64,000 nucleotides of DNA from an uncultured bacterium. GTDB lineage: Bacteria; Fidelibacterota; UBA2242. Positions 6,422 to 49,733 of the stretch are shown here, one piece after another. The notes below the pieces were generated by a model. That model was not told the DNA's origin and made no database searches. It saw only the letters and a list, made by a program, of their open reading frames with translations. Where the stretch lies: positions 18,639 through 82,638 of the forward strand of contig CAZPQN010000003.1 of NCBI GenBank assembly GCA_964588795.1, given 5' to 3'. How positions within the stretch are numbered: position 1 is the stretch's first letter; each line of letters begins with the position of its first letter. A program made the translations under genes and the position numbers.

Positions 6422-7780
6422 TCATTTCATACTGGCATATCGTTGCCAGAGTTGCACGGCAGCTTTCTGACTTTCTTCAATGATCAATTCTTCATCCAGA
6501 GTCAGGAAGGCGCCATCATCGTAAATGCGCTGTCCGTTCGTCATGACCAATGCTGCCCGGCAACCAGCCATGCCAAAAATCAGATGCCCGAAAAGATTAT
6601 CGCGGTGAAAAGGTGTCACGGGAACATAATCAAACACGACGATATCGGCGGCAGCGCCCGGCACAAGGCGTCCCGGGTGATAATCGAAGAAACGCGCCGC
6701 GATCTCGGCATTATTCTGCAATAAAACCGGCGGCAAAAGCGCGAACAATTCTTCCTCCGCAACACCTGCCTGACGGTGCCAAAGATAACCGGCTCTCAAG
6801 GTTGCCAGCATATCGGAATTCATGCCGTCGGTGCCCAGTCCGAGTTTGACTTTTTCCACCATTGGGAGCGACAAACGCCCCACATTGTTGTTCATATTCG
6901 ACTCAGGATTGTGAATCAGCGGCGCGCCGTGTTGCGCCAATAATTCCCGCTCAGCGGCAGTGAGGTGAATGCCATGGGCGCAGAGAGTTCTGGGCGTCAG
7001 CAAACCGAAGTGCTGCAGGCGATCCCCCGCCCCGTGGTAACCGAGCTGGCGGCACGTCTGACTATCAACCGGGTCTTCGGCACAATGAATATGCAAACCT
7101 GTTTCCGGGTCAAAGTTACGTGCGATTTCCTGCAGGGATTTTTCCGAAAGCGTGAAATTGGCGTGCAGACCGAGTGTGCCTTTTATTGACGCATCGTTCT
7201 GATGGGCGGCTATAAAGCGCAGGTTTTCATCGAGACCCTGTTTAAAAACATTGGCACCATCCCGGTCGGAAATCTCATAGCAAAGACAGGCTTTCAACCC
7301 GGCGCGTCTAACTACCACGGCGATGTTTTCTAAGCTGTCATGTACACAATTCGGTGAGGCGTGATGGTCAAAAATCAGCGTCACCCCGTGACGAATACAG
7401 TCGAGCAATGCCACCAGAGCGGAGAGTTGTACCGTTTCTAACGCCAAGGCTTTGTCCAGTCGCCACCAGAAATATTGCAGGCGTTCGCTGAAGTTATCCG
7501 GCGGTTTGAAGGGCGCAAGTCCTTTGGCAAAAGCAGAGTAGAAGTGATGATGCAGATTGATCAGTCCTGGAAAAATGACTTTGCCCTGGGTATCATAGAT
7601 CTCAATATTCTGGTCCCGTGGGACATGTTCGAAGACCGTTTCTTCCTCTCCCACATATTCAACCTTGCCATCCTTAACGAAAATAGCGCCGTTTTGAAAG
7701 ACGTGCTTCTCTCCGTCGAATAGTGGGCCACCGTAAATGATCATCGCTTTGTACGACTCATCCATTCTGTGTCCTTTCAA
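6422..7780 (-). CDS. amidohydrolase of the chlorohydrolase/deaminase (TRZ/ATZ) family, SsnA-like
   Basis: Metal-binding HHHFYSAF motif near N-terminus, size about 450 aa, adjacent to a hydantoinase-like gene as in ssnA loci. Confidence 0.6.
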   Translation of the reverse strand: MKGHRMDESYKAMIIYGGPLFDGEKHVFQNGAIFVKDGKVEYVGEEETVFEHVPRDQNIEIYDTQGKVIFPGLINLHHHFYSAFAKGLAPFKPPDNFSERLQYFWWRLDKALALETVQLSALVALLDCIRHGVTLIFDHHASPNCVHDSLENIAVVVRRAGLKACLCYEISDRDGANVFKQGLDENLRFIAAHQNDASIKGTLGLHANFTLSEKSLQEIARNFDPETGLHIHCAEDPVDSQTCRQLGYHGAGDRLQHFGLLTPRTLCAHGIHLTAAERELLAQHGAPLIHNPESNMNNNVGRLSLPMVEKVKLGLGTDGMNSDMLATLRAGYLWHRQAGVAEEELFALLPPVLLQNNAEIAARFFDYHPGRLVPGAAADIVVFDYVPVTPFHRDNLFGHLIFGMAGCRAALVMTNGQRIYDDGAFLTLDEELIIEESQKAAVQLWQRYASMK

Positions 7781-9193
7781 TTAATTCATTCCACGCGGGA
7801 TAAATTGCCCTTGCTTTGTATCGCTTAGTCCTTTCTGAAAATCGTAAATCTTGTTACCTCGTAAGTACACCTGCTCAATCCGCCCCTCAAAGACATGACC
7901 TTCGAAGGGAGTCAGCTTCCCTTTGGAGGGAAAATCAGCACCCTGGATGCGGGTTTGAGCATCTTCGTTAAAGACAACAAAATCGGCATCGCTGTCGAGT
8001 GCCAGCGTTCCCTTGCGTGGAAAAAGCCCAAAGCGACGCGCCGCCGCCGTGGCAGTAATTTCCACCAAACGCGCCAAAGTCAATCGTCCCTGCCGATATC
8101 CTGCCGAATACAGGTAAGGTAAAAGAGTTCCGACACCACTGATTCCGCCATAGTCCGTCCAGATGGAGCCGGTCTGTTTCTGAGCCGGCGGACAGGGTGC
8201 ATGGTCACTGGCCACCAATGCCAGCTTGTTTGATAATAACGCCTGCCAGAGCTGCTCGCGATGCTCTGGCGATTTAAGTACCGGAGCACATTTCAGGATA
8301 CTGCCCCGCGTTAAAAAATCCAGGGCGCTAAAAGCGAGGTAGTGCGGACAGGTCTCGCCACTGATGTCCGTTCCCAACGACCGATAATCATCGATCAGTT
8401 GGGCGCCTGCTCCAGTCGAAACATGCACGATATGCAGCCGCGCCCGGGTAGCCCGGGTGATTTTGGCGGCCCGCTCGATTGCCTGGGTTTCCGCTTTCAC
8501 CGGCCTCGAAAGATAATACGCTTCCGTATCCGTACGACCGCCTCTGACTAATTCATCAGTCAAATTCTGCACCAAGTCGGCATCTTCGGCGTGATGCCCG
8601 ACCAGAGCCCCGATTTCCGCCGCATACCCGACAACCTCTAGTAGTTCAGTCGGGGTCAGTTGCGGGAAAGTCGGCATCCCCGACAGAGCGTAGGTCTTGA
8701 ATCCAACCACTCCTGCATCCCAGAGCGTCCGCATTGCCGCGCGCCAGTCAAAGGTGGTTAACGGCCCTGCAACCCCTCCCCAGAGGGCGAAATCCACATA
8801 CGATTGGTGCTCAATAAAATGTAGTTTATTTTCCAGATGAGGAACCGAGGTCACCGGCGGCAAAGAAGTGCAGGGCATGTCAATTACCGTCGTGATGCCA
8901 CCCATCGCGGCAAAAGCCGAACCGGTCGCAAAACTTTCCCGTTCTTCGAATCCCGGTGTATTGAAATGCACATGCGGATCAATGCCTCCCGGCAAGACTA
9001 ACCGGCCCTCCAATTCGACGATTGCACAGTTTTCCGGTGCGATAAGTCCATGACCGCGGCCGGCTATTTTGCCATTTAGTACGAGAAAGTCGGAGATAAC
9101 GGCCGCATCTGCTTCTGCAGTCGCCATTTTTGCATTCCGGAAAAGAATCTTTGTTGCCGGCCAACTGCTCTGAGGCAAAAAGTTCACCCTCAA
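7781..9193 (-). CDS. cyclic amidohydrolase (D-hydantoinase/dihydropyrimidinase/allantoinase-like)
   Basis: GGIDPHVHF metal-binding motif, about 450 aa; true start may be the internal Met at 9127 (MATAEADAAVISDFLVLNG). Confidence 0.7.
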   Translation of the reverse strand: MRVNFLPQSSWPATKILFRNAKMATAEADAAVISDFLVLNGKIAGRGHGLIAPENCAIVELEGRLVLPGGIDPHVHFNTPGFEERESFATGSAFAAMGGITTVIDMPCTSLPPVTSVPHLENKLHFIEHQSYVDFALWGGVAGPLTTFDWRAAMRTLWDAGVVGFKTYALSGMPTFPQLTPTELLEVVGYAAEIGALVGHHAEDADLVQNLTDELVRGGRTDTEAYYLSRPVKAETQAIERAAKITRATRARLHIVHVSTGAGAQLIDDYRSLGTDISGETCPHYLAFSALDFLTRGSILKCAPVLKSPEHREQLWQALLSNKLALVASDHAPCPPAQKQTGSIWTDYGGISGVGTLLPYLYSAGYRQGRLTLARLVEITATAAARRFGLFPRKGTLALDSDADFVVFNEDAQTRIQGADFPSKGKLTPFEGHVFEGRIEQVYLRGNKIYDFQKGLSDTKQGQFIPRGMN

Positions 9194-13415: not shown

Positions 13416-15635
13416 TTAACTACGCAGGACGGGTGGTGTATAGCGTTTCAGTAGCAGGGCGAGTGAAATCACCGTGACCGAGCTTAAGGCCATTGCCAGT
13501 CCTCCCAGCTCCGGTCGGAAGGTGATCCCGAATAGCGGCTTGAGCAGACCAGCGGCGACCGGTATCAGCGCAATATTATAAGCAAAGGCCCAGAACAGAT
13601 TCTGCCGAATTTTTCGCATCACCTGCCGACTCAACTGCAATGCCGCGACGACGCCGCGCAGGTCTTCACGCATCAGTACAATCGCTCCACTTTCCAGCGC
13701 GACGTCGGTGCCAGAACCGATCACGATGCCGATATCCGCCTGGGCTAAGGCGGGCGCATCATTGATACCATCGCCTACAAAAGCCACTTTTACACCTTGC
13801 TTCTGCAGGTCGACGACTTTCTCCGCTTTGCGGGCAGGCATAACTTCTGCCAGTACTTCTTTGATCCCTGCCCGGGCCGCTATCGCCTGTGCCGTCTGCA
13901 TATTATCCCCGCTTATTAAAGCCACTTGGTAGCCTTCGGTCTGTAGAGCGGCAACAGCCTCCCGGGCTGTGTTTTTCAAGCGGTCTGCGATGGCAATCAG
14001 TCCTACCGTTTGATCGTCGAGAGCGACGCTAACGACGGTCCGACCTGCGTCCGAAAATTGTTGCATACGTAAGCGTAAATCTTCCGGTATCATTACTCGG
14101 CGTTCATCGCAAAAGCGTCGGTTGCCAATGACAACCGAATGACCTTCGATTATCGCACTCACCCCCTGACCGCCGGAGGCAGAAAAGTCTGTCGCTTCAG
14201 GTAATTCAATATGGCGTTCCTCCGCCATGTGGACAATTGCTTTGCCCAAGGGATGCTCTGAGTTGCGCTCCACGGCGGCGGCGTATCGAAGCAGAGCATC
14301 AGTAGATAACTGCGGACTGTAAATTTCGACAACTTCCGGCTTTCCCGTCGTCAAAGTGCCGGTTTTATCAAATATGACCGTGCCGACGCGGGAAGCTACC
14401 TCCAGCGCCGCACCATCTTTGATGAGAATTCCCAACTCAGCACCGCGCCCGACGCCAACGGTGATAACCGTCGGAGTAGCCAGTCCTAGGGCACAGGGAC
14501 AGGCGATAACCAGTACTGCAATCAGCGCCGATAGCGCGAACAAGAGCGTCTCTCCGGCAATAAAGTACCAAAACAAAAAAGTCAGGAGCGCGATCACGAG
14601 TACCACTGGAATAAAATAAGTCACCACGGCGTCAGCTAACCTCTGTATCGGAGGTTTACTGCTCTGCGCGGATTCCACGAGTCGAATAATGCTGGCCAAA
14701 ACCGTTGCCTGTCCGATTTGCTCCGCCCGTACTTGTAAAACACCGTTTTTGTTCAGCGTTCCGCCAATCACTTTGTCATTAACCTCTTTAAAAACCGGGA
14801 GCGATTCTCCGGTCAGCAAGGCTTCGTCCAACCAGCTGGAGCCGGCGACGATAGTTCCGTCAACCGGTACCTGACTGCCCGGTTTGATCAGCACAAGATC
14901 ACCGACAATAACATCGGCCACCGGAATTTCTTCGGTCTTATCGTCGCGCACAACCCAGGCGGTTTTCGGTTGCAGATCTAAAAGACGTTGCAAAGCTGCC
15001 GAAGTTTTGCCCTTCGCCCGGGCTTCCAAATAGCGCCCGAGGCTTAGAAAGGTCGCCAAGAAAATCGCCGTCTCGTAGAACATGAATTCATGCGTCAGGA
15101 CGATTTCAAAAGTGCCCAGCAGGCTGGCAAGGTATGCGACCCCGATGCCCAAAGCATACATCACGTCCATATTCAGCTGACGATGCATTAGGGCGATGCC
15201 CGCAGAACGGAATATCGGCCAACCTAAAAATATAAAAACCGGAGTGGCAATCAGTAATTGCACAAGATGCAGATTCACGCGGAGCGCGTTTCCGACCAGC
15301 ATGGCTGACATCAGCAAGGCACCGGTGACGAAACCGACAACAATCCGCCAGAATTGCTTGCGCAGACTGCGCCGTAGCATTTCAGCCCCGGCAAATTCCG
15401 GCTCGCCTTCGACTCCGATCAGCTCATACCCGGCGCCGCTGAGAGCTTTCCGTATCAGGGCAAAGTCAGGCAGGCGATTTACGGTCAACCACGCCTTTTC
15501 CGTTGCCAGATTAACTGTGGCGCTGATAACGTCCGGCACCGCGCTGAGCGTCTTCTCAACCGTCCTGACGCATGCCGCACAATGCATTCCGCCAATTTTG
15601 ACAGCGACATTTATTTTAGCCATTGGAGATTCCAT
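13416..15635 (-). CDS. copA: copper-translocating P1B-type ATPase
   Basis: N-terminal HMA domain GMHCAACV, CPC motif (ACPCALGLATP), DKTGTLT phosphorylation site, GDGINDAP. Confidence 0.9.
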   Translation of the reverse strand: MESPMAKINVAVKIGGMHCAACVRTVEKTLSAVPDVISATVNLATEKAWLTVNRLPDFALIRKALSGAGYELIGVEGEPEFAGAEMLRRSLRKQFWRIVVGFVTGALLMSAMLVGNALRVNLHLVQLLIATPVFIFLGWPIFRSAGIALMHRQLNMDVMYALGIGVAYLASLLGTFEIVLTHEFMFYETAIFLATFLSLGRYLEARAKGKTSAALQRLLDLQPKTAWVVRDDKTEEIPVADVIVGDLVLIKPGSQVPVDGTIVAGSSWLDEALLTGESLPVFKEVNDKVIGGTLNKNGVLQVRAEQIGQATVLASIIRLVESAQSSKPPIQRLADAVVTYFIPVVLVIALLTFLFWYFIAGETLLFALSALIAVLVIACPCALGLATPTVITVGVGRGAELGILIKDGAALEVASRVGTVIFDKTGTLTTGKPEVVEIYSPQLSTDALLRYAAAVERNSEHPLGKAIVHMAEERHIELPEATDFSASGGQGVSAIIEGHSVVIGNRRFCDERRVMIPEDLRLRMQQFSDAGRTVVSVALDDQTVGLIAIADRLKNTAREAVAALQTEGYQVALISGDNMQTAQAIAARAGIKEVLAEVMPARKAEKVVDLQKQGVKVAFVGDGINDAPALAQADIGIVIGSGTDVALESGAIVLMREDLRGVVAALQLSRQVMRKIRQNLFWAFAYNIALIPVAAGLLKPLFGITFRPELGGLAMALSSVTVISLALLLKRYTPPVLRS

Positions 15636-15727: not shown

Positions 15728-18571
15728 TCACAAGGCAATTCCGGCCAAAACCAGCTCCATTCGGGTGTCGCGTTCATGTACACGGTAGGTGTAGCGTACT
15801 CCACCGGTCAAATCAACCGGCATGGTAAAAAGATTAAAATCGCACTGCAATTCAATACCGAACGCGTCGTAAAGCACAGACCGTGATCCTGTTTTCCCAG
15901 ATGCCCGGTCGCCGAACAGATTGCTCCAGATACGTTTACAATTAAACAGGGCACCCAGGGCGAAATCCGGATAAAACAGCGGAAAGGCATAATCCAACGA
16001 AGCGCGTCGGAAATGATCGTAGTAGGTATAGGCATAACCGCGAACAAACGATACCGGACTTACAAAACGATAATTGGTTGGATCCTGAATCTCGACCGCG
16101 CCTCCGATCACCAGGCTATGATGGCGCGCTAGCCCCGGGAAATAGAGATTACCCTCGCCGACTAACTGCCGACCCTGATAATCCATCTTAAACGGCGTAT
16201 GCCGCAATGTTAATTGCCCATCAATACCGGCAACCGGTCGTAAATCGCGCAGGGCTTTACTCCGATACTTCTGGTAGACGACCTGGTAATGGAACGGGCA
16301 GAAACTGCCGTCATTATTCACGTAGCTTTTAGGTTGTTCTTTTCCTTTCAGCGAGGTAATGCCAAAACCGGCGTTGAGCTCCAGCCGTCGCGAATAGACT
16401 CCGCTCGAAAGATCACAGGGAAGCCGCAGATTCAATGCCAGGTTACGCTCTGTCCAGACATCGGTCACCGTTCGCCTCCCATTATTGATCAGGGCAAATC
16501 TTCTTCCGCAACCACTGCTGACGTCAACAATCGGACGGATACCGGCATAACTGCAGGTGGCATTGACGAACAGCGCTTTCTCGCTGGCGTAATAGAGCAG
16601 GGCTGGACTGAATTGAAAGGTATTTAAAAGATCAGTAGAAAAACAACCGGCCGCTAAAAATCCCGAGACCGGAATGAAGTACCAGCTGTGAATATTGATC
16701 AGGTGGGCGCGGGGACTGTATTCTGTCGAGGGATAAATTATATCAGGTATTTTCTCCGGCATTAGCGGATTTTGCGGATTTTCTTGCTCCATAATAGGTG
16801 CAAAATAATCAATCGGACGCCGGGCAACCGTTTCCAACGCTCGCCAGTTGACCGTATCCAACGTCGTGCATTTGATGTCCAATCCTTTAACCGCGTAATC
16901 GCTGTAAACCAACTGGTTCCCTTTTACCATCGGCGAAAATGCCCCAAAACGACTGGAAATTACCTGATACCGACGACCGTTCATCAGGTCGAGGGCATAG
17001 ATATTGTCAATCCCGGAGTACGAAGAGCTGTAGAAAATATAGTCGCCTGCCTGGATAGGATTGGATACATTTTCGTCACTTTCCGGCAGGAGGTCGCGGA
17101 ACTCTCCGCTGTGACAATCGAGCCTAGTCAGTGTCTTACCATTAAATTGCTGGCGGGTCATAATTAAAAACTTCCCGTCCGGAGACCATGACGGTTCCTT
17201 AAGAAAAGAATTGGCAGGTGCCGGAAAGCGCTTGATTGTTGCCCCGGTTCGAGGATCAAGTAAAACTATCGCACAACGACGTTCCGGTGTGAATTCAATC
17301 GCGGCGATATTTTTCCCGTCTGGCGCGGGTGCCGGGGCAAAGTACCGTCCGCCGCTGGTAATTTCCTGCACACGTCCGGTCTGCAGGTCACAGACCGCGA
17401 CATCCGAGGCTATTTGACTTCCCCAAAACCTGTCGGTGTTGTAGACACTCCAGGTCGCTAACTGTCCATTGATGGCGACCCGCCCCGGTCCTGATACAAA
17501 AGTCAGGGGTTTTTCCCGCCCGTCAGCCTGAATTCGAACCAGCGTCGGAATATCGGCCATCCCGGAAATGGTGACCCAGAGTGCACCGTCCGCAGACCAT
17601 TGTGGCCAGCGGTACTGGGTCCAGACTTTTTTCGGTTTCTTATTCAGCGGCGTAACTTCTTCGAAGATCAAATTAGCCGATTGCCATTGCCAAAGAGAGT
17701 CCAGCTCATTCATCGTCGCCTGATAGATCTGGCGTGAATTTTTCCCGATAATACGCTTTGCCATCCGGCTGAAAGCAAAAGGACTGTAACTACGCTGGGC
17801 AGAGCGAGTTATGATCCGCGCCCAGGCATCAGCACCATAGCATCGCCGGACATGCGTCGTCATCAAGTATCCTAAGGTATAATGATTCGGGTAATAGTCG
17901 CGATAAGAGTTTAAGAAAGCCTTGTAATACGAATAACGGAATCCCGAAAGCTCTACCGCTCTTACGCCAATATCAAATTCCGGTAAACGGCCACGACCAC
18001 TGCGAGAGAGCGCGGTTTCGATTCCCACCGCGTCACCTTCCCAGAACCAGGCCGGAGTCTGCCAGAAACTGAGCACGCGTCCGACGTCGCCAAATAAAAA
18101 ACTCGCCAGGCGAGTGAAACCCCGCTCATGATAATCGAACTGTGCCATGTGCCGCCCTTCATGCACCGCGAGCAGGTTGTACCATTCTTCCGTGCCGGAG
18201 AAATTATCCTGCGGAGGCGTGGCAAACCACTCACTTTTCCGCGGCGCCAGACTGACATAGCCATTGGCGACGGCGCTCCGATTAGAAAGCACGACCGGCC
18301 ACCGGCGACTTTCGACTCGCAGGGTCTTGCGCAAAGGTTGATGCAAATATTCGAGAGTGTTGGCGACCCGCTGGGCTTCGGATTCGATTTCAGCCGGAAA
18401 AACTATTGCATAATGCTGAGTTTGCAGTTGACGCCAGTGAATGCCCGGCGGTGGCTGATTCGAGTCGAGCATCTGCGCGTATACCAGAGCAGAAAGATAG
18501 TGCATAGCGAAAATGGTATAGCCGATGTTCTTAAAAAAGACGTTGGCCGGCGGTTTCCAGGAATTTTTCAT
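15728..18571 (-). CDS. large secreted protein (947 aa): N-terminal HExxH zincin-like domain, central TolB/PD40-like beta-propeller repeats, beta-strand-rich C-terminal region
   Basis: Signal-like MHYLSALVYAQ; AVHEGRHMAQFDY (HExxH); repeated ...SPDGK.../...APDGKNIA... propeller-like blades; Tyr/Gly-rich C-terminus. Confidence 0.5.
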   Translation of the reverse strand: MKNSWKPPANVFFKNIGYTIFAMHYLSALVYAQMLDSNQPPPGIHWRQLQTQHYAIVFPAEIESEAQRVANTLEYLHQPLRKTLRVESRRWPVVLSNRSAVANGYVSLAPRKSEWFATPPQDNFSGTEEWYNLLAVHEGRHMAQFDYHERGFTRLASFLFGDVGRVLSFWQTPAWFWEGDAVGIETALSRSGRGRLPEFDIGVRAVELSGFRYSYYKAFLNSYRDYYPNHYTLGYLMTTHVRRCYGADAWARIITRSAQRSYSPFAFSRMAKRIIGKNSRQIYQATMNELDSLWQWQSANLIFEEVTPLNKKPKKVWTQYRWPQWSADGALWVTISGMADIPTLVRIQADGREKPLTFVSGPGRVAINGQLATWSVYNTDRFWGSQIASDVAVCDLQTGRVQEITSGGRYFAPAPAPDGKNIAAIEFTPERRCAIVLLDPRTGATIKRFPAPANSFLKEPSWSPDGKFLIMTRQQFNGKTLTRLDCHSGEFRDLLPESDENVSNPIQAGDYIFYSSSYSGIDNIYALDLMNGRRYQVISSRFGAFSPMVKGNQLVYSDYAVKGLDIKCTTLDTVNWRALETVARRPIDYFAPIMEQENPQNPLMPEKIPDIIYPSTEYSPRAHLINIHSWYFIPVSGFLAAGCFSTDLLNTFQFSPALLYYASEKALFVNATCSYAGIRPIVDVSSGCGRRFALINNGRRTVTDVWTERNLALNLRLPCDLSSGVYSRRLELNAGFGITSLKGKEQPKSYVNNDGSFCPFHYQVVYQKYRSKALRDLRPVAGIDGQLTLRHTPFKMDYQGRQLVGEGNLYFPGLARHHSLVIGGAVEIQDPTNYRFVSPVSFVRGYAYTYYDHFRRASLDYAFPLFYPDFALGALFNCKRIWSNLFGDRASGKTGSRSVLYDAFGIELQCDFNLFTMPVDLTGGVRYTYRVHERDTRMELVLAGIAL

Positions 18572-18728: not shown

Positions 18729-20207
18729 CTAAAAGCTGATTTTCAAACGCAGGTACGGCCAGAGATTCTCCATCAGGTCAATTTCCTTGACTCCGTACAG
18801 CGTGTAGCGGCCGTCGAACTCGGAACCGCGTGAGCCTCCTAAAATGAAAGCCCCTACGGTGATGTCAAAATTGTTATAGGGCGAGTAACTGTAACCCGGC
18901 AGGACCGCAAAACTGCCGTCGTCCAGATTAGTAAAGAAAGCCAGGTTGAATTTATGGAAATCCTTAACCGTTTTTTCCAACATCAGGAACGAATAATTGC
19001 GGGCGTTGACCAGTTTCTCACCGGACAGGATTGTCATAAGATTGTAGTCTTTTTTATTTTTAGCACCGGAACCCTGATAGTAGTACTCCATCCGCGTGTC
19101 GACCTCAACCGCCGAGATCCGGTAGTCGAAACCCAGACACATTTCCAAATTATCGGCGGTACGATAATTTTTCAGGACGAATTTTTTATCCCGGTTATCG
19201 CGGGGCAAGCGGAGGACAAACTCACCATATACCCCGCAATCCCCGATTGCTCCGGCAAAATCAAAACCCGCGAAATAACTGCGCTTATAATAAGGATGAC
19301 GCGGCAGGTCAGCCAGCAGCTGGGCCAAGGCTCCCTGCTTGAACATTTCGAGAACCGTGACAGTGTCGCCCGCCGCCAACAGCTCCGCCATTGCCTGGTT
19401 GGCGACTATTCCCTGAATATAAGCCATGCCAGCCTGGGTCAGGACTGCGTCCAGCGGGCGAGTATCCAAATCATTATAGAGCACTTCTCTGATCCAGCTC
19501 AGTGAAATGTCGAACGCGCCGGCGATGCCATTCAGTTTAATGCCATAGGGCAGGTTTTTAATGTCGCTGTCCTCCTGATAGGCGGTCTTTTTCTGGGTCT
19601 TATCCTGGAAAGCGAGGTAGGCTTCGATGGAGAAACGGTTGGAAAGAGCATAACTGGGCAATAGTGCCATGGTACCCGGCGTATCCTCCGTCACCATATC
19701 CAGAAACGGTGGAAAAGCCACCCGCGCCGTGGGATTGAAAACATATCCTGTGCCCCAGGCGACCGGGAACTTCCCAAACTGCAAATCAAAATCACCAAAA
19801 CTGGCCATCCCCCAGACATGATCGAAAAACAGGCGCTGATTAAAATCCTCCAGTGGAAAATCGCTCTGCGAAAATCCGGCAATACCCAACCTTTCATAAA
19901 GCAGATAGGGATTTTGATTGCCTACGTTGGACTGGTAGGAAAATTCCATATGAAAGCGCAGGTTCTGCTCCGGTCGCCAGTCACCCTTCAAGCGTAGTAA
20001 AAGAGCATCCCCGAACGTGGGCCGGGAAAACTGCTGATTTCTAAAATTCAGACTGGATTGAAAATAGTTTATGAGGTAGCCGTAAAGACCGGTCGATTCA
20101 TCGGAACCGCCCATACTCGAATCCTCATTCGGCGCACTTGCTACTGTCAGATCAGCACCCAGCCCGCTGATTAAAAAAACCATCGAAAGATAGATTATTT
20201 TTGGCAT
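18729..20207 (-). CDS. putative outer-membrane beta-barrel protein
   Basis: Signal peptide MPKIIYLSMVFLISGLGADLTVASA; alternating amphipathic pattern; C-terminal ...YLRLKISF ending in Phe typical of OM barrels. Confidence 0.5.
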   Translation of the reverse strand: MPKIIYLSMVFLISGLGADLTVASAPNEDSSMGGSDESTGLYGYLINYFQSSLNFRNQQFSRPTFGDALLLRLKGDWRPEQNLRFHMEFSYQSNVGNQNPYLLYERLGIAGFSQSDFPLEDFNQRLFFDHVWGMASFGDFDLQFGKFPVAWGTGYVFNPTARVAFPPFLDMVTEDTPGTMALLPSYALSNRFSIEAYLAFQDKTQKKTAYQEDSDIKNLPYGIKLNGIAGAFDISLSWIREVLYNDLDTRPLDAVLTQAGMAYIQGIVANQAMAELLAAGDTVTVLEMFKQGALAQLLADLPRHPYYKRSYFAGFDFAGAIGDCGVYGEFVLRLPRDNRDKKFVLKNYRTADNLEMCLGFDYRISAVEVDTRMEYYYQGSGAKNKKDYNLMTILSGEKLVNARNYSFLMLEKTVKDFHKFNLAFFTNLDDGSFAVLPGYSYSPYNNFDITVGAFILGGSRGSEFDGRYTLYGVKEIDLMENLWPYLRLKISF

Positions 20208-20218
20208 CGTGCTTTTCC

Positions 20219-20962
20219 CTATTTGTAAAACCGCATTGGATTAAAATATTTATCATCAAGCGGCACGTCGTATTCAGCATCGTGCATTATGACGACGGTT
20301 TTGCTCTGCTTAATCAGGTTCAGCATCGTCATGCGCGTGGGCATCTGGCGCCCGGAAATCATTTTGTACTCTTCGATCAAGAGATCCTTTTTATGACCAT
20401 CAGCAGCGGTATAATATTCAATTTTAGGCGTCTGATAGTTTTCTTTTAAAATGGTGATGACCACTTTGGAATAGGATGATTCCTTTTTCGGAGTTCCCTC
20501 CAGCGTCCAGCTTTTGGCGTCCGATTTGAGAATTTTAAAGGAATAACTCTCTTCCATATTGCCGCCACCGAGATCTTCATAAGTGAAATCCCCACCGACG
20601 CCCTGTACTGTCTGATCCTTCGATTTGGCGGCGATTTTACGCACCCGCCCTGTGGACGGAAAGTAGACCCACTGATCGCCGGAAAGAGACAGAATCCGCA
20701 ATCCTTGAATGGACTTTGGGGTAATGAACTCCATGTAGCTGTTATCTTCGCCTTTACCGTAAGCCAAGACCTTCATTTCCCGAAAATTACTATTATCACC
20801 GACATAAGGATAGGTCAACATGCTCATTTTGGCGCTACTACTGCTGGTCTTGCCCATTTCATCCACTTTGCGAATGATAGTCAGCGCCTCATCCTCGGCT
20901 GAGGCTGAAATCGCCACAAGCACAATCATCAATCCCCTTAAAAATCGTCCCGTATATTGCAT
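20219..20962 (-). CDS. LolA-like periplasmic protein (outer-membrane lipoprotein-sorting-like, non-canonical LolA fold family)
   Basis: Signal peptide; about 220-aa mature domain; paralogous to ORF 52187..52930 (shared ...GGDFTYEDL... / ...GSDLSYEDM... block); immediately downstream of MMPL exporter. Confidence 0.55.
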   Translation of the reverse strand: MQYTGRFLRGLMIVLVAISASAEDEALTIIRKVDEMGKTSSSSAKMSMLTYPYVGDNSNFREMKVLAYGKGEDNSYMEFITPKSIQGLRILSLSGDQWVYFPSTGRVRKIAAKSKDQTVQGVGGDFTYEDLGGGNMEESYSFKILKSDAKSWTLEGTPKKESSYSKVVITILKENYQTPKIEYYTAADGHKKDLLIEEYKMISGRQMPTRMTMLNLIKQSKTVVIMHDAEYDVPLDDKYFNPMRFYK

Positions 20963-20976
20963 GGTTTCCTCCTTGG

Positions 20977-23697
20977 TTATTTTTGCTTCTGGTCAAAAGT
21001 CAACAGGGCGGGTAAAATGAATATGGCGGTCAACAGGCAGGTCGTTATACCCACGAAGAGAATCCGCCCCATGGAATTTACTGATCCAAATCGTCCGATC
21101 AACCCCAACGAACCAAATCCGATCATCGTCGTCAAGGCTGACAGTAAAACGCCTTTACCGGTGTAGCGATAGACGGTTTTGATGTCTTGTTCAACCCGGA
21201 AACGGTGCGCGATATGAATACCGAAGTCGATACCCATGCCGATGACGAGAGGTATCATGGCGATGTTAATGAAATTTAGTCGCTGCCCCAATAATGGATA
21301 CAAACCACCCATCCAGAGCATGCCGATAATTAGCGGCGCCGACGCGAAAACCACATATTTCAGGTTCCGGAAATTCAGAATCAGGAAAAAGAGCACTGCC
21401 GCAAAAATATATATGCCTGCCCTCCCGGAAGCATTAATAACCTCGTCTAACCAGGCTGTCAGGATTTGGGTTACCCCGGTGATTCTCGGCGATACCCGCG
21501 CAAGGGAATTGTTAAAATGGCGAATTATGTCAATTTTATCCAGAATACCTCCTTCCGGATAGATCATGATCAGATTCCGGGTTCCCGTTTGATCGAACAT
21601 GCCATTCCGGACGGATTCCGGCAGGTCGTCAATGGTCATCGGGCGGCGGGCCTGACACATCCGGGTAACGATCGCATCCATTTCCTTAGCAAAATAATAA
21701 TCCAGCTGGGTCAGACGCCGGGCGTATAGTTGCGGATCGCTGGCGATAAGCCCAATCAAATTTTTAAAAATTTCCCGCCCCGACTGACCCACCTCCGCTC
21801 CAAAAATCTCGCGAATCATGGCATTGCGCCTTTTGACGATCTTATTGTTCTCGCCCAATCCGGCGACTGAGAGATCGCTCATCTCAATAATATTCCATTC
21901 CAGGCGCTGAATTTCCTGCACAAATCTTTCAATATCGGCACTAGAATAGTGTATCTGACGGTAGCGGGTGGGCATTTTACGCAGCTTGGCGATGGCCGCC
22001 AGCCGAGCCTGCTGTTCCTCTTCCGGGGGAAAGAAGTAGGACACCGAACTGATCTCGGCGATCATCGGAGTTTTTTCCAGTTTTTCGGTAATCGTGCGAG
22101 CTTCCTCAATGCTATTGGTTATCACCATCGAGGCAAAGGGGGTCATCTCGAATTTTTCCATGACTTTCTGATATTGGATCATCGCGGGCATATCCTGCGG
22201 CTCGAGCTTCATGATATCATATTCAAGTCGGTTCAGGAATATCGCCCCAGACAGTCCGACGGTGATCAGCCCGCTCAATATCAGGGATAGCTTTCGATGT
22301 CTGTAAAGCGTCTGGCTGATGTCGGCTAAAAACTGATAATTGATGTTGGGCAGGTGGGTTTTGCTGACATCCTTTTTTCCCCACCAGAGTAAGAGGGATG
22401 GTAATATGAAAAACATCGCTAAAAAACAATTAATGATGCCGGTCCCCATAATCAGCCCGAATTGCTCAAAAGCCTGGACGCCGGCAGCGGACATGACAAA
22501 AAAAGCGATCGCCGTCGTTATTGCGGCTAAAAATGTACCCATCCCGGCTTTTTGATAGGTAAGACGCAGGGCTTCGGGCGGTTCATAACCGTCCTCACGG
22601 TAAGTGGTAAAATTGGTTATGATCTGAATCCCGTAATCCACTCCTAACCCGATGAGCAGGATGCCCATAATGCTGGTCATCATGTTGATCTCTTTAATTG
22701 TCACGCCAACGAATCCGTAATTAAATACAACCCCCATAATCAGGACCAGCAAAACGAAAATTATTGAACGCAACTGGCTGAAGGAAAAAATAAACAGCAA
22801 TAAAATCAGAACAATAGCCACTATTGACGGAACCGCCATATCGAAGCTGAGTGCGTCCTGTTCATCGCTCTGAGTTGGTAAATCGCCGGTATACCCGACA
22901 TGTAAATCAGGATACTTGGCATTCATAGCACTCTGTACTACTTTTATCTCATGCATGAACTCGATCACTTTTTCTACTTCGATCGCGTTAATTGCGGGGG
23001 TGATAGTGAATAAAAGCATGCTGTTATCATGGTTAAACCGGTACGGATCGCCGTAGAGAAATGTCTCCGCTAGGACCTGGCCCTGCTCTGCAACCGGCAA
23101 CGTGTCCGGATTGGATAGAAAAACCCGCAAACTGGTAAAGAAGTTCTCTATTTGCGAAAGCATGGCAACCGCATCGTTTTCCTGCTTGTTGGTCTCCAGC
23201 TCCTCTTCGGCTTCGTCGCCTGTGTAAGTCTCCTCAAAAGAATTATTCAGCGCGGTGACGAATGGTAAAAGATTCAGTTGCGACAAGGTTTGGCTGGTCT
23301 TTTCAATGTCCTTGGCCTTGGACAGCATCAAACCCCAATCATCAATGAACTGGCGATCGGTTTTCAGGTTGATGGCTTTGATACTCTGCACCAGCTTCTC
23401 ATTGGCGCGGACCATGGCAACGAAATCCTCGGCACACTGGCCCATGCGTATTTTATCCTGACCCTCGATGGTGATCATGGCGGTAGCTCCACCGGAAAAA
23501 ACCGAATCAACTTCGAGATAGCTGGCAATTTTGGGATCTTCTGCTGATAGGAGGTCCTTGATCTCGGTTTTCGTTTCAATATTTTGCGCCGCGATCAGAC
23601 TAAGCACAAAAAGCACTACCGCCACAAACGGTATCCATTTGTAAAAACGAACTACGAAATTAGCGACGATTTGCATGATTTTTCCCTCTGATTTCAT
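20977..23697 (-). CDS. MMPL/RND-superfamily exporter (predicted 12-TM, two large periplasmic loops)
   Basis: 906 aa, two repeated 6-TM bundles each preceded by a large hydrophilic loop; characteristic of COG1033 exporters. Confidence 0.8.
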   Translation of the reverse strand: MKSEGKIMQIVANFVVRFYKWIPFVAVVLFVLSLIAAQNIETKTEIKDLLSAEDPKIASYLEVDSVFSGGATAMITIEGQDKIRMGQCAEDFVAMVRANEKLVQSIKAINLKTDRQFIDDWGLMLSKAKDIEKTSQTLSQLNLLPFVTALNNSFEETYTGDEAEEELETNKQENDAVAMLSQIENFFTSLRVFLSNPDTLPVAEQGQVLAETFLYGDPYRFNHDNSMLLFTITPAINAIEVEKVIEFMHEIKVVQSAMNAKYPDLHVGYTGDLPTQSDEQDALSFDMAVPSIVAIVLILLLFIFSFSQLRSIIFVLLVLIMGVVFNYGFVGVTIKEINMMTSIMGILLIGLGVDYGIQIITNFTTYREDGYEPPEALRLTYQKAGMGTFLAAITTAIAFFVMSAAGVQAFEQFGLIMGTGIINCFLAMFFILPSLLLWWGKKDVSKTHLPNINYQFLADISQTLYRHRKLSLILSGLITVGLSGAIFLNRLEYDIMKLEPQDMPAMIQYQKVMEKFEMTPFASMVITNSIEEARTITEKLEKTPMIAEISSVSYFFPPEEEQQARLAAIAKLRKMPTRYRQIHYSSADIERFVQEIQRLEWNIIEMSDLSVAGLGENNKIVKRRNAMIREIFGAEVGQSGREIFKNLIGLIASDPQLYARRLTQLDYYFAKEMDAIVTRMCQARRPMTIDDLPESVRNGMFDQTGTRNLIMIYPEGGILDKIDIIRHFNNSLARVSPRITGVTQILTAWLDEVINASGRAGIYIFAAVLFFLILNFRNLKYVVFASAPLIIGMLWMGGLYPLLGQRLNFINIAMIPLVIGMGIDFGIHIAHRFRVEQDIKTVYRYTGKGVLLSALTTMIGFGSLGLIGRFGSVNSMGRILFVGITTCLLTAIFILPALLTFDQKQK

Positions 23698-23721: not shown

Positions 23722-24405
23722 TCATTTTCTGGGATCTTTAAAACGTGATGCAGACATGCTTTTCATAATTTCATTAAGATTAAGCATTTCGATTTGATCC
23801 CGGGTCAGCGCTGAATAAAGCTTGCCAAAAGAATTGGCGAAAATGGTTGAAATGGTCTTCAAATCGGTATGATAGTACTCGCACCATTCATCACTAAATA
23901 TTACAAAGGAAAACAAGGGCGCAAAAAAGCAAAAGAAACCACTTAACAGCTGGGCCTGATTCTTTTCCAGTCTAATGCCTAATCGAGCCGAAATAGCATA
24001 ACCGGCATCGAAATTCTGATCGAAATAGCGGAAAATATTCAGGTGGGGGGTCAATTCTACATCTTTGATGGACTCGGCAAATGCAATTTTAATCGCGTTT
24101 TTATTGGCCATCAAAAAAGGTAGCGTGTTGTTCAAAATGATCGTGTCGATACCAAGCGTCGGTTCTGCAAGCCAGGCTTCGGTGATGGATTGTTTGATGA
24201 CCACCGACTTTTTCACGAAGTCATCCATGAGCGAGGCCAGGATTTCTTCCTTGCTCTTGAAATAATAGTAGATGAGTGACTTGGTTATTCCCGCCGTTTT
24301 GGCGATCTGATCAATACCGGTGGCGTCGAAACCGCGCTGAGCAAAAAGGGCTTCAGCCGTCTGCAGGATCTTCCGGCGGATGTTTTTTCTTGGTTGCTTG
24401 ACCAT
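23722..24405 (-). CDS. TetR/AcrR family transcriptional regulator
   Basis: N-terminal HTH AEALFAQRGFDATGIDQIAKTAGITKSLIYYYFKSKEEIL. Confidence 0.85.
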   Translation of the reverse strand: MVKQPRKNIRRKILQTAEALFAQRGFDATGIDQIAKTAGITKSLIYYYFKSKEEILASLMDDFVKKSVVIKQSITEAWLAEPTLGIDTIILNNTLPFLMANKNAIKIAFAESIKDVELTPHLNIFRYFDQNFDAGYAISARLGIRLEKNQAQLLSGFFCFFAPLFSFVIFSDEWCEYYHTDLKTISTIFANSFGKLYSALTRDQIEMLNLNEIMKSMSASRFKDPRK

Positions 24406-24565: not shown

Positions 24566-25987
24566 TCAGCTTCGGAAAAACGCGGCACCTTTCCGGACTG
24601 CCTGCTGATTGAGCTCGATCAGGTTTTTACGCTTTAATACATCCCCTAAGGTGTCGAGTACAATTTCCATGTGCATGATTTTTTGGTGTTCGATCAGAGC
24701 ACCGGCGATGATCATATTCGCGGCTTTGGAATTGCCGAGTTCATCCGCCATCTGGGTAGCAGGAATCGCCAGAACCGTCACATCAGTTCGTACCGGTTGA
24801 CGGTCAATGATGGAATCGTCATAAATGATCAGACCTCCGGGTACGACATCATTTTCGAATTTGTCCAGCGAGGGACGATTCATGGCAATCAGCACGGTGG
24901 GATTGGCGATCAGCGGAGTACCAATCTTGCGGGTGGCGATTTTGACGCTGCAATTGGCCGTACCTCCGCGCATTTCCGGCCCGTAAGAAGGGAGCCAGCT
25001 GACATGATAGTCATGACGCATCGCCATCTCGGCTAACACTTTGCCCAAACTCAGCACACCCTGTCCTCCGAACCCGGCGATCTTGATTTCCTCGGTGAGG
25101 TCGTCTTTGCGGATCGTGGCGATTTTATGCTGGTCGATTTTGGAACCTTCAATATTGAGAATTTTCGGCAGCTCTTCAAACTGGACTACGGTTCGTTTGA
25201 AATCTCTACCGGGAAATTGTTCTGAGATGTCCTTTTTAACTCCTAAGGGAAATTGTTTCTGGAACACTTCGCGCACCCATTCGCGGGCTTTAACTGACGA
25301 CAATTTGAGGTTCGAAGGACAGGATGACAGAGCTTCGATGAAACAAAAGGCGTTTTTTTCCGCCTGGAGTTTCAAGGCTTTCCGAACCGCTGTGCGGGCT
25401 TGCATGATGCTTTTTGTATCGCCCAGCATCACACGCTCGACGTACACCGGGGCTTCCAATTGAGCAATGAGTTCCGCCATCCGAATTGGATAACCCTCAT
25501 TGTCGCTCGTGCGTCCGCGGGGGCTGGTGAGAGTTTTCTGGCCGATCAGCGTCGTGGGAGCCATCTGTCCGCCCGTCATACCGTAAACGGCATTGTTCAC
25601 GAAGAAGACTGTGATCCCTTCTCCGCGATTGGCGGCGTGGATAATCTCGGCGGTGCCGATCGCGGCTAAATCACCGTCACCCTGGTAGGAAATAACGATT
25701 GATTCGGGATGCGCGCGTTTGATGCCCGTTGCGACTGCCGGAGCCCGCCCATGAGCTACCTGGACATTGCCGGTATGAAAATAATAATAAGCAAAGACAC
25801 TGCAACCGACTGGACTGATAAAAATCGTCCGATCGCGCAGACCGAAATCGTCCAGCGCTTCAGCAATCAACTTATGCAGATTGCCATGACCGCATCCCGG
25901 ACAGTAGGTCGTCGTCAATTTATCACTGCCGGGTTTACGCTCATAGACTTCATAGAAAGAACTGGATTTCTGCAGGACCGTGTTCAT
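24566..25987 (-). CDS. 2-oxoacid:ferredoxin oxidoreductase, fused beta (TPP-binding) and gamma subunits
   Basis: N-terminal [10 protein letters not shown] and GDG TPP motifs (beta); C-terminal [20 protein letters not shown]...GPEMRGG (gamma). Confidence 0.8.
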
Positions 25988-27048
25988 ACCGACCTCATGA
26001 GTTTGATGACTTCATCGTGAATTTCGCGAATCGACGGTACATTGCCGCCCACCCGACCGTAAAAGTAAACTGGCTTGCGGCCATCTACCGCGAGGCGCAC
26101 ATCGTCGACCATCTGACCGTTACTCATTTCGGAGACCAGGAAGAAACGTGCCTGTTTAGTCAATTCGCGCATGATCGCTTTGGGAAACGGGAAAAGCGTT
26201 ATCGGGCGCACCAGACCGACCGGAATGCCTTCCTGGCGTAGATTATCAACCACCGTTTGCAGGATGCGGGAAATGATTCCGAATCCCACCAGGATAATTT
26301 CCGCATCCCTGGTCTGATAGGTCTCGTAGCGGACTTCTTCCTCTTCCATAATCCGGTACTTCTGCTGGAGTTTGTTGATATGTTTTTCCAAATCATCGGG
26401 ATCAAGGTCAATCGAGGTTAGCAAATTATCGGCGGTTTCGGGCGTACCTTTTACTGCCCAGCTTTTTTCCGGGAACTTCGTGACCGGTTCCGGAAATTCC
26501 ACCGGTTCCATCATCTGACCGATAAAGCCATCGGTTAAAATGTAAACCGGATTACGGTATTTGTCCGCTAATTCAAATGCCAATTTGCCCAAATCGCACA
26601 TTTCCTGCACCGAATTGGGGGCGAGGACAATGACTTTGTAATTTCCATGGCCCCCGCCTTTGACTACCTGATTGTAATCACTTTGCTCCGGAGCGATGTT
26701 GCCCAGTCCCGGTCCACCGCGCATGACGTCAACGATGACGCAGGGCAATTCGGCCCCGGCACAATACGAAACTCCCTCCTGCTTCAGGCTGATTCCCGGA
26801 CTGGAGGAAGCGGTCATGACGCGCTCGCCAGCCGCCGCGGCGCCGTAGACCATGTTAATGGCGGCAATTTCGCTCTCTGCCTGGATGAAAGTCCCCCCGG
26901 CCACCGGTAAATAGAGGGCGGCGGCATGCGCGATTTCACTCGCGGGAGTTATTGGATAGCCATAGTAGGCCCGGCAACCCGCCAGTATGGCTCCCTTGAC
27001 TACTGCTTCATTTCCATATAACAATTGTTTTGCCATAGCAGACCTCAT
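25984..27048 (-). CDS. 2-oxoacid:ferredoxin oxidoreductase alpha subunit
   Basis: N-terminal [31 protein letters not shown] typical of KorA/VorA/PorA; 4-nt overlap with beta-gamma gene. Confidence 0.8.
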
Positions 27049-47820: not shown

Positions 47821-49005
47821 TTGTATATTTGGCGATTTTTTTCTAATCTGTCAGCAGACATGCAGACGACTAGGACACATTATCAGAGGTACCGATTAAT
47901 TGGCTCGTTGTTATTCCAGATGGGAATCGCCGGTAGCGTGATTGGTCAGGGTCAGACCAACCCGGCAAGTACCTGGGATTTTCGCGGACAGTTGGAACTG
48001 AGTGGCAGTCTGAGCCGTTATCAGCAGATCTGGTCGAGACGGGGAACCGCCCGGTATCTGCCATCAATCGAATACCAGCACCAATTGTCAGAGGCCAGGA
48101 CTCTCGGCGCGGATTTCTCTGTCATCCTGTTCGCGGATAGTATAAAAAAACCTGCCCCCGAAAACGTTGATCTCTACCGTCTGAGCTTCCGCTATGCGAC
48201 TCCCCAAAGTGAATGGCAGTTCGGTTTGCAGAAAATCAATTTTGGACCGGCTCAGATTCTGCGTTCCTTGATGTGGTTCGACCGCCTTGATATTCGGGAT
48301 CCGCTGAAAGCTACCACCGGCGTCTGGGGACTACGCTGGCGCTATAATTACCTGAATAATGCCAACGCCTGGCTATGGGTGCTCTATGGCAACGACGGTA
48401 CCAAAGGGATGGAAACGGTGCCGACAGCGCAAGGTCGCCCGGAACTCGGCGGTCGTTTTCAAATTCCAGTACGCTCCGGCGAAGTGGCGATGACAATACA
48501 TCAACGGGCGCTTGCCCAGCCCTTCGATAAGGATGAAACCCGGGTGGCCTTCGACGGACGCTGGGATTTCATCTTGGGCTGGTGGCTCGAAGCAGTCTGG
48601 CATAATAATAGCCCGGACCTCAAATATGCGGTCACCGGGGGAGTGGATTACACCTTCGGAATTGGCAATGGCCTTTATACCATACTCGAGCATAAAACCA
48701 ATTTTTTCCCAACCAGCAATCGCTTTCCTGAAATGAATCTGACCGGGCTGACCCATTGGCACGGCTACGATCTGCTTAAGGTCTCTGCATTGATGCTCAC
48801 TTACCCTCTGACGCTGTTCGATAACCTGGTGGCGGTAGGTTATTATTCATGGGCTACGAATGAGTTTTTCGAATATTTGGGCTGGCAGAGAACCTTCGAC
48901 AGAGTGATTATTAACCTGAGCTTTTTTAATTACCCTGGACCGACACTGGCTACGGGAAAAATGGCTGGTTCTGGCGCCCAGCTTATGTTAATTTACAATC
49001 ATTGA
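47821..49005 (+). CDS. putative outer-membrane beta-barrel protein (start uncertain)
   Basis: No cytoplasmic motif; alternating aromatic/hydrophilic pattern; loosely resembles ORF 18729..20207; upstream of Lol-like ABC operon. Confidence 0.35.
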   Translation: MYIWRFFSNLSADMQTTRTHYQRYRLIGSLLFQMGIAGSVIGQGQTNPASTWDFRGQLELSGSLSRYQQIWSRRGTARYLPSIEYQHQLSEARTLGADFSVILFADSIKKPAPENVDLYRLSFRYATPQSEWQFGLQKINFGPAQILRSLMWFDRLDIRDPLKATTGVWGLRWRYNYLNNANAWLWVLYGNDGTKGMETVPTAQGRPELGGRFQIPVRSGEVAMTIHQRALAQPFDKDETRVAFDGRWDFILGWWLEAVWHNNSPDLKYAVTGGVDYTFGIGNGLYTILEHKTNFFPTSNRFPEMNLTGLTHWHGYDLLKVSALMLTYPLTLFDNLVAVGYYSWATNEFFEYLGWQRTFDRVIINLSFFNYPGPTLATGKMAGSGAQLMLIYNH

Positions 49006-49031: not shown

Positions 49032-49733
49032 ATGCACAACTCGGCAATTATCACAATCCAGAATCTGGTTAAAGACTATCCCATAGGTGGCGGTTCATTC
49101 CGGGCGTTGAGCGACATCAGTCTGCAAATCGGTCAAGGTGAATTTATCGGTTTGGTCGGCCCGAGTGGCAGCGGCAAAACAACTTTGCTGAATATCATTG
49201 GTGCACTTGATAATCCCACCGCGGGACATACCGAAGTCCTGGGACATACCATCGAGAACCTCAGCCACCGGCAGGCCGCACGGTTGCGCAACTCCTATCT
49301 CGGATTTATTTTCCAGACCTATAACCTGTTGCCCGTGTACAATGTTTACGAAAACGTGGAATTTCCGTTGCTATTATTGAAAAAGAGTCAAAATGAACGT
49401 CGGGAACTGACTCTGCGCGCTCTGGAATGGGTGGGCTTGACCGATAAAATCAAGTCCCGTCCGGCTCAACTCTCCGGTGGGGAGTGCCAGCGCGTCGCCA
49501 TTGCCCGGGCTATGGTCAAGCAACCCCAGGTCGTGTTGGCCGATGAACCGACCGCCAACTTGGACGCCGCCAATTCCCACCACATCTTGCAGACCATGGC
49601 GAAGCTCAACACCGAGCTCAAAACGACCTTTATCTTCGCGACCCATGATGACAAGGTCATCGGCTACCTGCGCCGCAAAGTCAGTCTGGCGGATGGTCAC
49701 GTGATAAAAGACGAAAACATCGTACAATCCTGA
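49032..49733 (+). CDS. ABC transporter ATP-binding protein, LolD/MacB-type
   Basis: Walker A GPSGSGKTT, signature LSGGECQRVAIARA, Walker B VVLADEPT, 233 aa. Confidence 0.85.
   Translation: MHNSAIITIQNLVKDYPIGGGSFRALSDISLQIGQGEFIGLVGPSGSGKTTLLNIIGALDNPTAGHTEVLGHTIENLSHRQAARLRNSYLGFIFQTYNLLPVYNVYENVEFPLLLLKKSQNERRELTLRALEWVGLTDKIKSRPAQLSGGECQRVAIARAMVKQPQVVLADEPTANLDAANSHHILQTMAKLNTELKTTFIFATHDDKVIGYLRRKVSLADGHVIKDENIVQS

Follow-up and report, generated by a model that had tools for sequence, protein, structure and literature searches.

Two LolA-like proteins of a Fidelibacterota bacterium belong to separate, conserved gene cassettes with different pumps and predicted outer-membrane barrels

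Introduction

Why one stretch of bacterial DNA should encode two LolA-like proteins, each beside a different class of exporter, is the question raised by a 64,000-nucleotide segment (the window) from an uncultured member of the Fidelibacterota (UBA2242; NCBI GenBank assembly GCA_964588795.1, contig CAZPQN010000003.1, positions 18,639 to 82,638 of the forward strand). An initial annotation, made from the letters of the window, had described the pair as paralogs hard-wired to distinct exporters, had considered such specialisation unusual, and had suggested that the two are cargo-specific periplasmic chaperones. The two genes, referred to here as A and B, are as follows.

20219..20962, minus strand: LolA-like protein A, 247 amino acids, PF17131; predicted periplasmic component of cassette A
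52187..52930, plus strand: LolA-like protein B, 247 amino acids, PF17131; final gene of cassette B

Combined, the results presented below place A and B in two anciently diverged, exporter-specific subfamilies, indicating that they are probably the periplasmic subunits of separate, widely conserved envelope-spanning export cassettes (cassettes A and B), in which hydrophobic molecules would be transferred from an inner-membrane pump to an outer-membrane barrel.

Two full-length members of one LolA-like family

The two proteins aligned over 241 of their 247 residues with 22% identity and 45% positives (BLASTP, E=3e-13), and both scored far above the 30-bit gathering threshold of PF17131 (LolA_like, also named TP_0789-like): protein A with 147.4 bits (E=4.8e-43, profile positions 1-179 of 184) and protein B with 174.6 bits (E=2.1e-51, profile positions 1-184 of 184). 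The open reading frames (ORFs), the BLASTP alignment and the Pfam matches therefore agree with the initial description of two homologous LolA-like proteins of about 247 residues. The possibility raised with it, that the resemblance is due to chance beyond one short block, is ruled out by an alignment of this length and by the Pfam scores. A search with the family hidden Markov models (HMMs) detected no further LolA-like ORF in the window.

The shared internal block that had first drawn attention to the pair is real, although the similarity runs far past it. It reads VGGDFTYEDLGGG in protein A (residues 122-134), with GGDFTYEDLGGG as the core that corresponds to GSDLSYEDML in protein B, and MGSDLSYEDML in protein B (residues 115-125). 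The block is the best-conserved motif of both families, with the G, D, Y and D positions at least 90% conserved in each. As also proposed initially, the N-termini of both proteins resemble Sec signal peptides (judged without a dedicated signal-peptide predictor); a lipobox is absent from both and is rare in their families (6/70 A-family and 3/71 B-family members).

The structural model of protein A, with a predicted local distance difference test score (pLDDT) of 84.9, adopts the open beta-barrel fold of the LolA superfamily and is closest to 3bk5, 4z48 and LolA3 of Porphyromonas gingivalis (LolA3-PG). Confidence was lowest (pLDDT 65-69) at residues ~121-139, which include the conserved block and contain two short helices in the model. 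At the profile level, the A family is closest to LolA3-PG (9tp6, 92 bits) and the B family to 3buu (76 bits), the latter also being the closest solved structure to protein B by sequence (E=7.9e-19).

Each subfamily is paired with its own pump class

Homolog searches returned 289 protein clusters for A and 7325 for B, the top homologs of both carrying names from Marinimicrobia/Fidelibacterota and several other phyla together with the public name 'outer membrane lipoprotein-sorting protein'. Gene order was compared in 80 A-type loci from one-genome-per-species contigs and 80 B-type loci from metagenomes, on which the proteins of the window were placed by tblastn; these 160 loci are the best matches to each query, and very divergent PF17131 members lie outside the sample. 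The A-type loci came from Marinimicrobia, KSB1, many Spirochaetota, Cloacimonadota, a metagenome-assembled genome (MAG) of the PVC group, Chitinispirillum, and Bacillota MAGs such as Hydrogenispora and Capillibacterium.

The claim that each copy is hard-wired to a different exporter class holds well beyond the window. An MMPL gene lies directly upstream of the A-type gene in all 78 loci with upstream sequence, and an FtsX gene lies directly upstream of the B-type gene in all 75 loci with room for one. A neighbour-joining tree of 143 sequences (Poisson distances) separated the A and B families in 100 of 100 bootstraps, and the two copies fall in exporter-specific clades within the sampled loci. 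The family HMMs also discriminated between them, each favouring its own members by more than 250 bits; for protein B, the B-family model gave 378 bits and the A-family model 85 bits.

The notion that this specialisation is unusual did not hold. Identity between the families is 17-32% (median 24%), compared with within-family medians of 40% (A) and 55% (B), and members of each occur in several phyla. A and B thus represent anciently diverged subfamilies whose pairing with exporters is the norm for PF17131, not a local oddity; the numbers of clusters given above show that both cassettes are common. For annotation purposes, the class of the neighbouring pump usefully predicts the PF17131 subfamily.

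Two Spirochaetota loci carry the association a step further. At L054 (7121..10723, on an Alkalispirochaeta chromosome) and L069 (5722..9297), single ORFs of ~1200 amino acids run in frame from the C-terminus of MMPL through a linker into the LolA-like domain, the former signal peptide persisting as an extra hydrophobic segment. Pfam confirmed both the MMPL and the LolA_like domains of the L054 fusion, and a comparable fusion, TOL_3187, has been reported in Thalassolituus (PMC6304351). Such fusions argue for direct contact between the LolA-like protein and the pump and for physical cooperation of the two. Both fusion loci belong to assemblies from alkaline or soda-lake settings.

The pairing rule also holds in a Bacillota MAG (L062, 45..12102), where both modules occur within 12 kb in the order FtsX, FtsX, a divergent B-like PF17131 gene, a gene for a 408-residue protein, a patatin-like phospholipase gene (E=3.2e-21), TetR, MMPL, the A-type gene and a homolog of the gene downstream of A in the window (X492, described below).

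Some loci depart in detail from the common arrangement. In five Spirochaetaceae loci (L020, L023, L026, L027 and L039), the A-type gene is preceded by a tandem pair of MMPL genes (~5.6 kb) in place of a single one. At L087, a second, truncated B-type LolA-like fragment (7608..7940) that shares 68% identity with residues 182-247 of protein B follows ~850 nucleotides (nt) downstream of the complete gene and looks like a partial duplication.

Organisation of the two cassettes

Cassette A is encoded on the minus strand of the window, where gene A is accompanied by three genes.

23722..24405, minus strand: TetR-family regulator, first gene of cassette A (PF00440 TetR_N, E=2.9e-18)
20977..23697, minus strand: MMPL/HAE3-type inner-membrane RND pump, 906 amino acids (PF03176 MMPL, 93 bits)
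18729..20207, minus strand: X492, putative outer-membrane beta-barrel, 492 amino acids; last conserved gene of cassette A

Gene A starts 14 nt past the MMPL stop codon, after an AAGGAGG ribosome-binding site, in agreement with the initial statement that it directly follows an MMPL transporter, and X492 begins 11 nt beyond gene A. The pump gave 372 bits with the HpnN model (cutoff 752), 198 bits with BstA and 183 bits with HAE3 (TIGR00921, cutoff 352) and is, as far as these NCBIfam scores go, kin of HAE3, HpnN and BstA lying below the curated equivalog cutoffs. A TetR homolog was located upstream of MMPL in 46 of the 80 A-type loci, or about three quarters of the loci that extend far enough in that direction, and was seen in L001 as well; its presence suggests induction by a small hydrophobic ligand, either the cargo or a related molecule.

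The closest Marinimicrobia relatives differ from the window at one position of cassette A. In L001 (7282..7953), L009 (9289..9960) and probably L007, a 223-amino-acid gene resembling membrane methyltransferases (Pfam ICMT, E=2.3e-12, and PEMT) stands between MMPL and the LolA-like gene, the site of the 14-nt gap in the window, where it is absent. Its presence may be a sign that the cargo is a modified lipid or isoprenoid.

Cassette B is encoded on the plus strand and consists of four genes ahead of gene B.

47860..49005, plus strand: X394, predicted outer-membrane beta-barrel, 381 amino acids counted from the ATG; first gene of cassette B
49032..49733, plus strand: ABC ATPase, 233 amino acids, LolD/MacB-like (PF00005); position conserved across loci
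49747..50919, plus strand: FtsX-type permease 1, 390 amino acids (PF02687 FtsX); position conserved across loci
50916..52190, plus strand: FtsX-type permease 2, 424 amino acids, with a MacB-like periplasmic domain (PF02687 and PF12704 MacB_PCD)

Permease 2 starts at the ATG at 50916, not at the TTG at 50727 given in the mechanical ORF list. ATGA overlaps join permease 1 to permease 2 and permease 2 to gene B, bearing out the translational coupling to the FtsX permeases that had been noted at first, and similar overlaps recur in the relatives (FtsX1/FtsX2, ATGA in 39 of 42 loci; FtsX2/LolA-like B, 4 nt in 36 of 51). The full order of barrel, ATPase, FtsX, FtsX and LolA-like gene was conserved in 36/36 B-type loci with at least 4.3 kb of upstream sequence. 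In the window, a convergent rhomboid gene closes the operon. No membrane-fusion protein and no TolC-family outer-membrane efflux protein partner of cassette B was found in the window or in Pfam-annotated relatives.

Both cassettes were additionally recognised on Pfam-annotated contigs from Latescibacteria, Deltaproteobacteria, Spirochaetales and one Marinimicrobia relative. Promoter and terminator scans around both cassettes gave counts at or near the shuffle expectation and were uninformative.

A predicted outer-membrane barrel in each cassette

The third conserved partner of each cassette, missed in the initial annotation and now pointed out for both, is a predicted outer-membrane barrel. 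An X492 homolog lies directly downstream of the A-type gene in 73 of the 74 loci with room, and members of the X492 family have a signal-peptide-like N-terminus and, in 67 of 68 cases, a C-terminal Phe. Five of 34 family members matched DUF1302 (best E=9.7e-8) and five matched Wzi weakly. The single A-type locus that has ~3.1 kb of downstream sequence yet no detectable X492 homolog, L075, shows ABC ATPase-like matches upstream of MMPL, which recall the pair of ABC ATPase genes in the Bacteroidota operons discussed below.

The 381-residue protein of cassette B had no match in Pfam, NCBIfam or the sequences of the PDB, and profile searches of both barrel families against PDB sequences likewise gave no match. 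Its structural model, built from a 40-sequence alignment (pLDDT 79.6, predicted template modelling score 0.75), contains ~18 long strands, and its closest structural neighbours are substrate-uptake channels of the Occ/OprD type. Four longer homologs of 536-646 amino acids (P0318, P0323, P0335 and P0347) carry PF05036, the SPOR peptidoglycan-binding domain, which would fit an envelope-anchored outer-membrane protein.

X492 and the 381-residue barrel showed no similarity by direct BLASTP. Among 5376 six-frame ORFs from all loci, the HMM of each barrel family matched members of the other with 12-21 bits (E 2e-5 to 0.013), and beyond their own families and the 408-residue protein of L062 the two HMMs matched only the other barrel family and nothing unrelated. 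The L062 protein, a match to the X492 HMM (E=2.7e-19), stands after the FtsX-linked LolA-like gene, where there is no X394-type barrel in front of the cassette.

Relation to known systems

The MMPL-linked architecture is already known from annotation in P. gingivalis and Prevotella. In P. gingivalis, PG1178 (porin), PG1179 (outer membrane lipoprotein-sorting protein), PG1180 (MMPL/membrane protein) and PG1181 (TetR) form one unit, termed an uncharacterised transport system, whose expression rises strongly when iron or heme is limiting (PMC10434189, PMC13096392, PMC11018363), and operons similar to PG1178-81 are annotated in Prevotella (PMC10434189, PMC13096392). The four gene types of that unit (TetR, MMPL, PF17131 and porin-like) also make up cassette A, clustered and pointing in one direction, a likeness that follows the published annotation, whereas the Bacteroidota operons belong to another phylum and have two ABC ATPase genes in addition.

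The structure closest to the A family, 9tp6 of P. gingivalis LolA3, has a hydrophobic groove and is without the LolA arginine and the LolB leucine; the protein binds LolB weakly, is not paired with LolB and was assigned 'a separate function', its genomic context being unmentioned (PMC13103446). From the shared annotation, LolA3-PG (PGN0947) appears to be the product of PG1179.

Cassette A also parallels, as a shorter variant, the Proteobacterial clusters of DUF1302, DUF1329, BNR and HAE3-RND genes (AmeABCD; Sama_1588-1591; PMC6394551, bioRxiv 10.1101/072470), in which these genes are cofit (bioRxiv 10.1101/072470). In Castellaniella defragrans, growth on monoterpenes requires ameB, which encodes a DUF1329 protein of the LolA superfamily, and deletion of ameABCD lowered monoterpene tolerance and dye efflux (PMC6394551). 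Compared with this type, cassette A has a 247-residue PF17131 protein in place of the ~450-residue DUF1329 protein, has a TetR gene in addition, is without a conserved BNR/Ycf48 propeller gene, and contains an X492 that reaches no DUF1302 score. The DUF1329 model itself gave 19.4 bits on protein A, under its cutoff of 23.1, and 247 residues are about half the usual DUF1329 length.

Cassette B resembles LolCDE-LolA and MacAB in having an ATPase, two FtsX permeases (with a MacB-like periplasmic domain) and, as in the Lol system, a LolA-fold protein. It differs from MacAB-TolC in being without a membrane-fusion protein and a TolC-like gene and in having a dedicated 18-strand barrel of no Pfam family. 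No paper describing cassette B was found in the searchable literature, nor was anything relevant on PF17131 or TP0789.

A further case of a LolA-family paralog devoted to a particular pathway is LolA2/LolB2 of the flexirubin locus in Bacteroidota, proposed by its authors as the first example of LolA paralog specialisation (PMC11885536). LolA2 differs from A and B in belonging to another LolA subfamily and in being partnered with a LolB-like lipoprotein in a pigment biosynthesis locus, not with a pump and a barrel.

Proposed transfer mechanism and alternatives

The reading that is probably correct, in which A and B serve separate export cassettes, can be put as a sequence of steps. A cargo of hydrophobic or lipidic nature would be taken by the inner-membrane pump from the inner membrane or the periplasm and handed to the cognate LolA-like protein, whose hydrophobic groove would receive it. 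Docking on, or bridging to, the barrel of its own cassette, the LolA-like protein would pass the cargo on, and the barrel would release it into the outer membrane or across it. In this scheme the LolA-like protein would stand in for the membrane-fusion protein and TolC of classical tripartite pumps, and its pairing with a pump class would be a property of the subfamily. The initially proposed role of cargo-specific periplasmic chaperone is a plausible possibility for A and B. Should this tripartite model be true, the cassettes would give diderms outside the Proteobacteria a common, unstudied means of moving hydrophobic molecules to the outer membrane or through it.

Several observations weigh against this reading. 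Both the direction of transport and the carrier role are read from gene order and fold, and the induction of PG1178-81 by heme and iron limitation (PMC10434189, PMC13096392) and of TOL_3187 on long-chain alkanes (PMC6304351) could indicate acquisition over efflux. With regard to the barrels, the X492 protein of the window had no Pfam or NCBIfam match of its own, and the apparent link between X492 and DUF1302 comes from the five relatives of 34 mentioned above. The alignment of the X492 and 381-residue barrel families by hhalign gave a probability of 7-11%, and the homology between the two families is suggestive at most.

The LolA-like proteins might alternatively carry no cargo and have a structural part, as adaptors or assembly factors joining pump and barrel, which has been proposed for AmeB. 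The MMPL fusions, which tether the LolA-like domain to the pump, are easier to reconcile with a fixed bridge than with a free shuttle, and AmeB and AmeC were suggested to be periplasmic adaptors by the authors who described them (PMC6394551). However, the fold is a lipid-binding open barrel, a hydrophobic groove has been reported for LolA3-PG (PMC13103446), and a 25-kDa domain is small for spanning the periplasm alone. A purely structural role is considered unlikely, and the roles of adaptor and carrier can coexist.

Less probable still is that cassette B is the genuine Lol pathway of this lineage, with the ATPase and permeases as LolD, LolC and LolE and protein B as the LolA that ferries lipoproteins. 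Two unequal FtsX permeases, an ATPase and a LolA-fold protein do mirror LolCDE plus LolA, the public name of the protein points the same way, and the best NCBIfam matches of the ATPase and the permeases were the LolD and LolC/E models. The scores themselves fell below every Lol equivalog cutoff: the ATPase gave 243 bits with LolD (TIGR02211, cutoff 307.75), and permeases 1 and 2 gave 54.2 and 24.6 bits with LolC/E (TIGR02212, cutoff 362). Additionally, the periplasmic carrier is not a canonical LolA, and a barrel takes the place of the LolB-like lipoprotein. Since neither cassette has the makings of a Lol system, both genes have probably been mislabelled in the databases as 'outer membrane lipoprotein-sorting protein'.

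It is similarly improbable that the cassettes serve the uptake of hydrophobic nutrients, for example heme-like molecules, alkanes or lipids, with the LolA-like protein carrying cargo inward from the barrel. Such a direction would agree with the strong response of PG1178-81 to iron or heme limitation (PMC10434189, PMC13096392), with the induction of TOL_3187 together with a neighbouring porin on a C28 alkane (PMC6304351), and with the Occ/OprD-type uptake channels that the B barrel most resembles in structure. Against uptake, deletion of ameABCD raised dye influx and lowered tolerance (PMC6394551). Neither cassette includes an importer-type periplasmic binding protein, and TetR control is typical of efflux systems. 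Furthermore, RND/MMPL pumps and type VII ABC (FtsX/MacB/Lol) transporters are known as exporters or extractors. Finally, protein B scored above the Pfam MucB_RseB threshold over residues 124-197 (30.2 bits versus 22.3), and a role as an RseB/MucB-like envelope-stress sensor with no part in transport is disfavoured as highly improbable.

Returning to the export cassettes, a more tentative extension is that a LolA-like protein and an 18-strand outer-membrane barrel form a portable module, leading from the periplasm to the outer membrane, that has been joined in evolution to energisers of unrelated kinds: in one case the HAE3 RND pump, in the other the type VII ABC transporter. This possibility, held with less than even confidence, follows from the weak, reciprocal HMM matches between the barrel families, with none to unrelated ORFs, and from L062, where an X492-type barrel comes after the FtsX-linked LolA-like gene. 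If it is true, the two cassettes would define a class of trans-envelope exporters of lipids or other hydrophobic molecules that needs neither a membrane-fusion protein nor TolC; under the same condition, cassette B would be a system of very wide distribution whose description was not found in the searchable literature, with a barrel family for which there is no Pfam model.

Genes flanking cassette A

Directly downstream of cassette A, the minus strand encodes a 947-residue protein (15728..18571) with an HExxH-like motif (HEGRH) near its N-terminus and a propeller segment of the TolB/PD40 type (PD40, E=3.4e-6; TolB model, E=4.4e-10). It was considered as a counterpart of the AmeC propeller and rejected, a PD40-propeller gene near cassette A being kept in only one other locus, L009, at a distance, and not in the other 79 A-type loci; the protein is probably unrelated to the cassette. 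Other flanking genes on the same strand have no evident tie to cassette A either: on one side lies a CopA-type copper P-type ATPase (13416..15635; TIGR01525, 630 bits), and on the other flank (24566..27048) are two genes with domains of 2-oxoacid:ferredoxin oxidoreductases (POR, TPP_enzyme_C, POR_N and PFOR_II).
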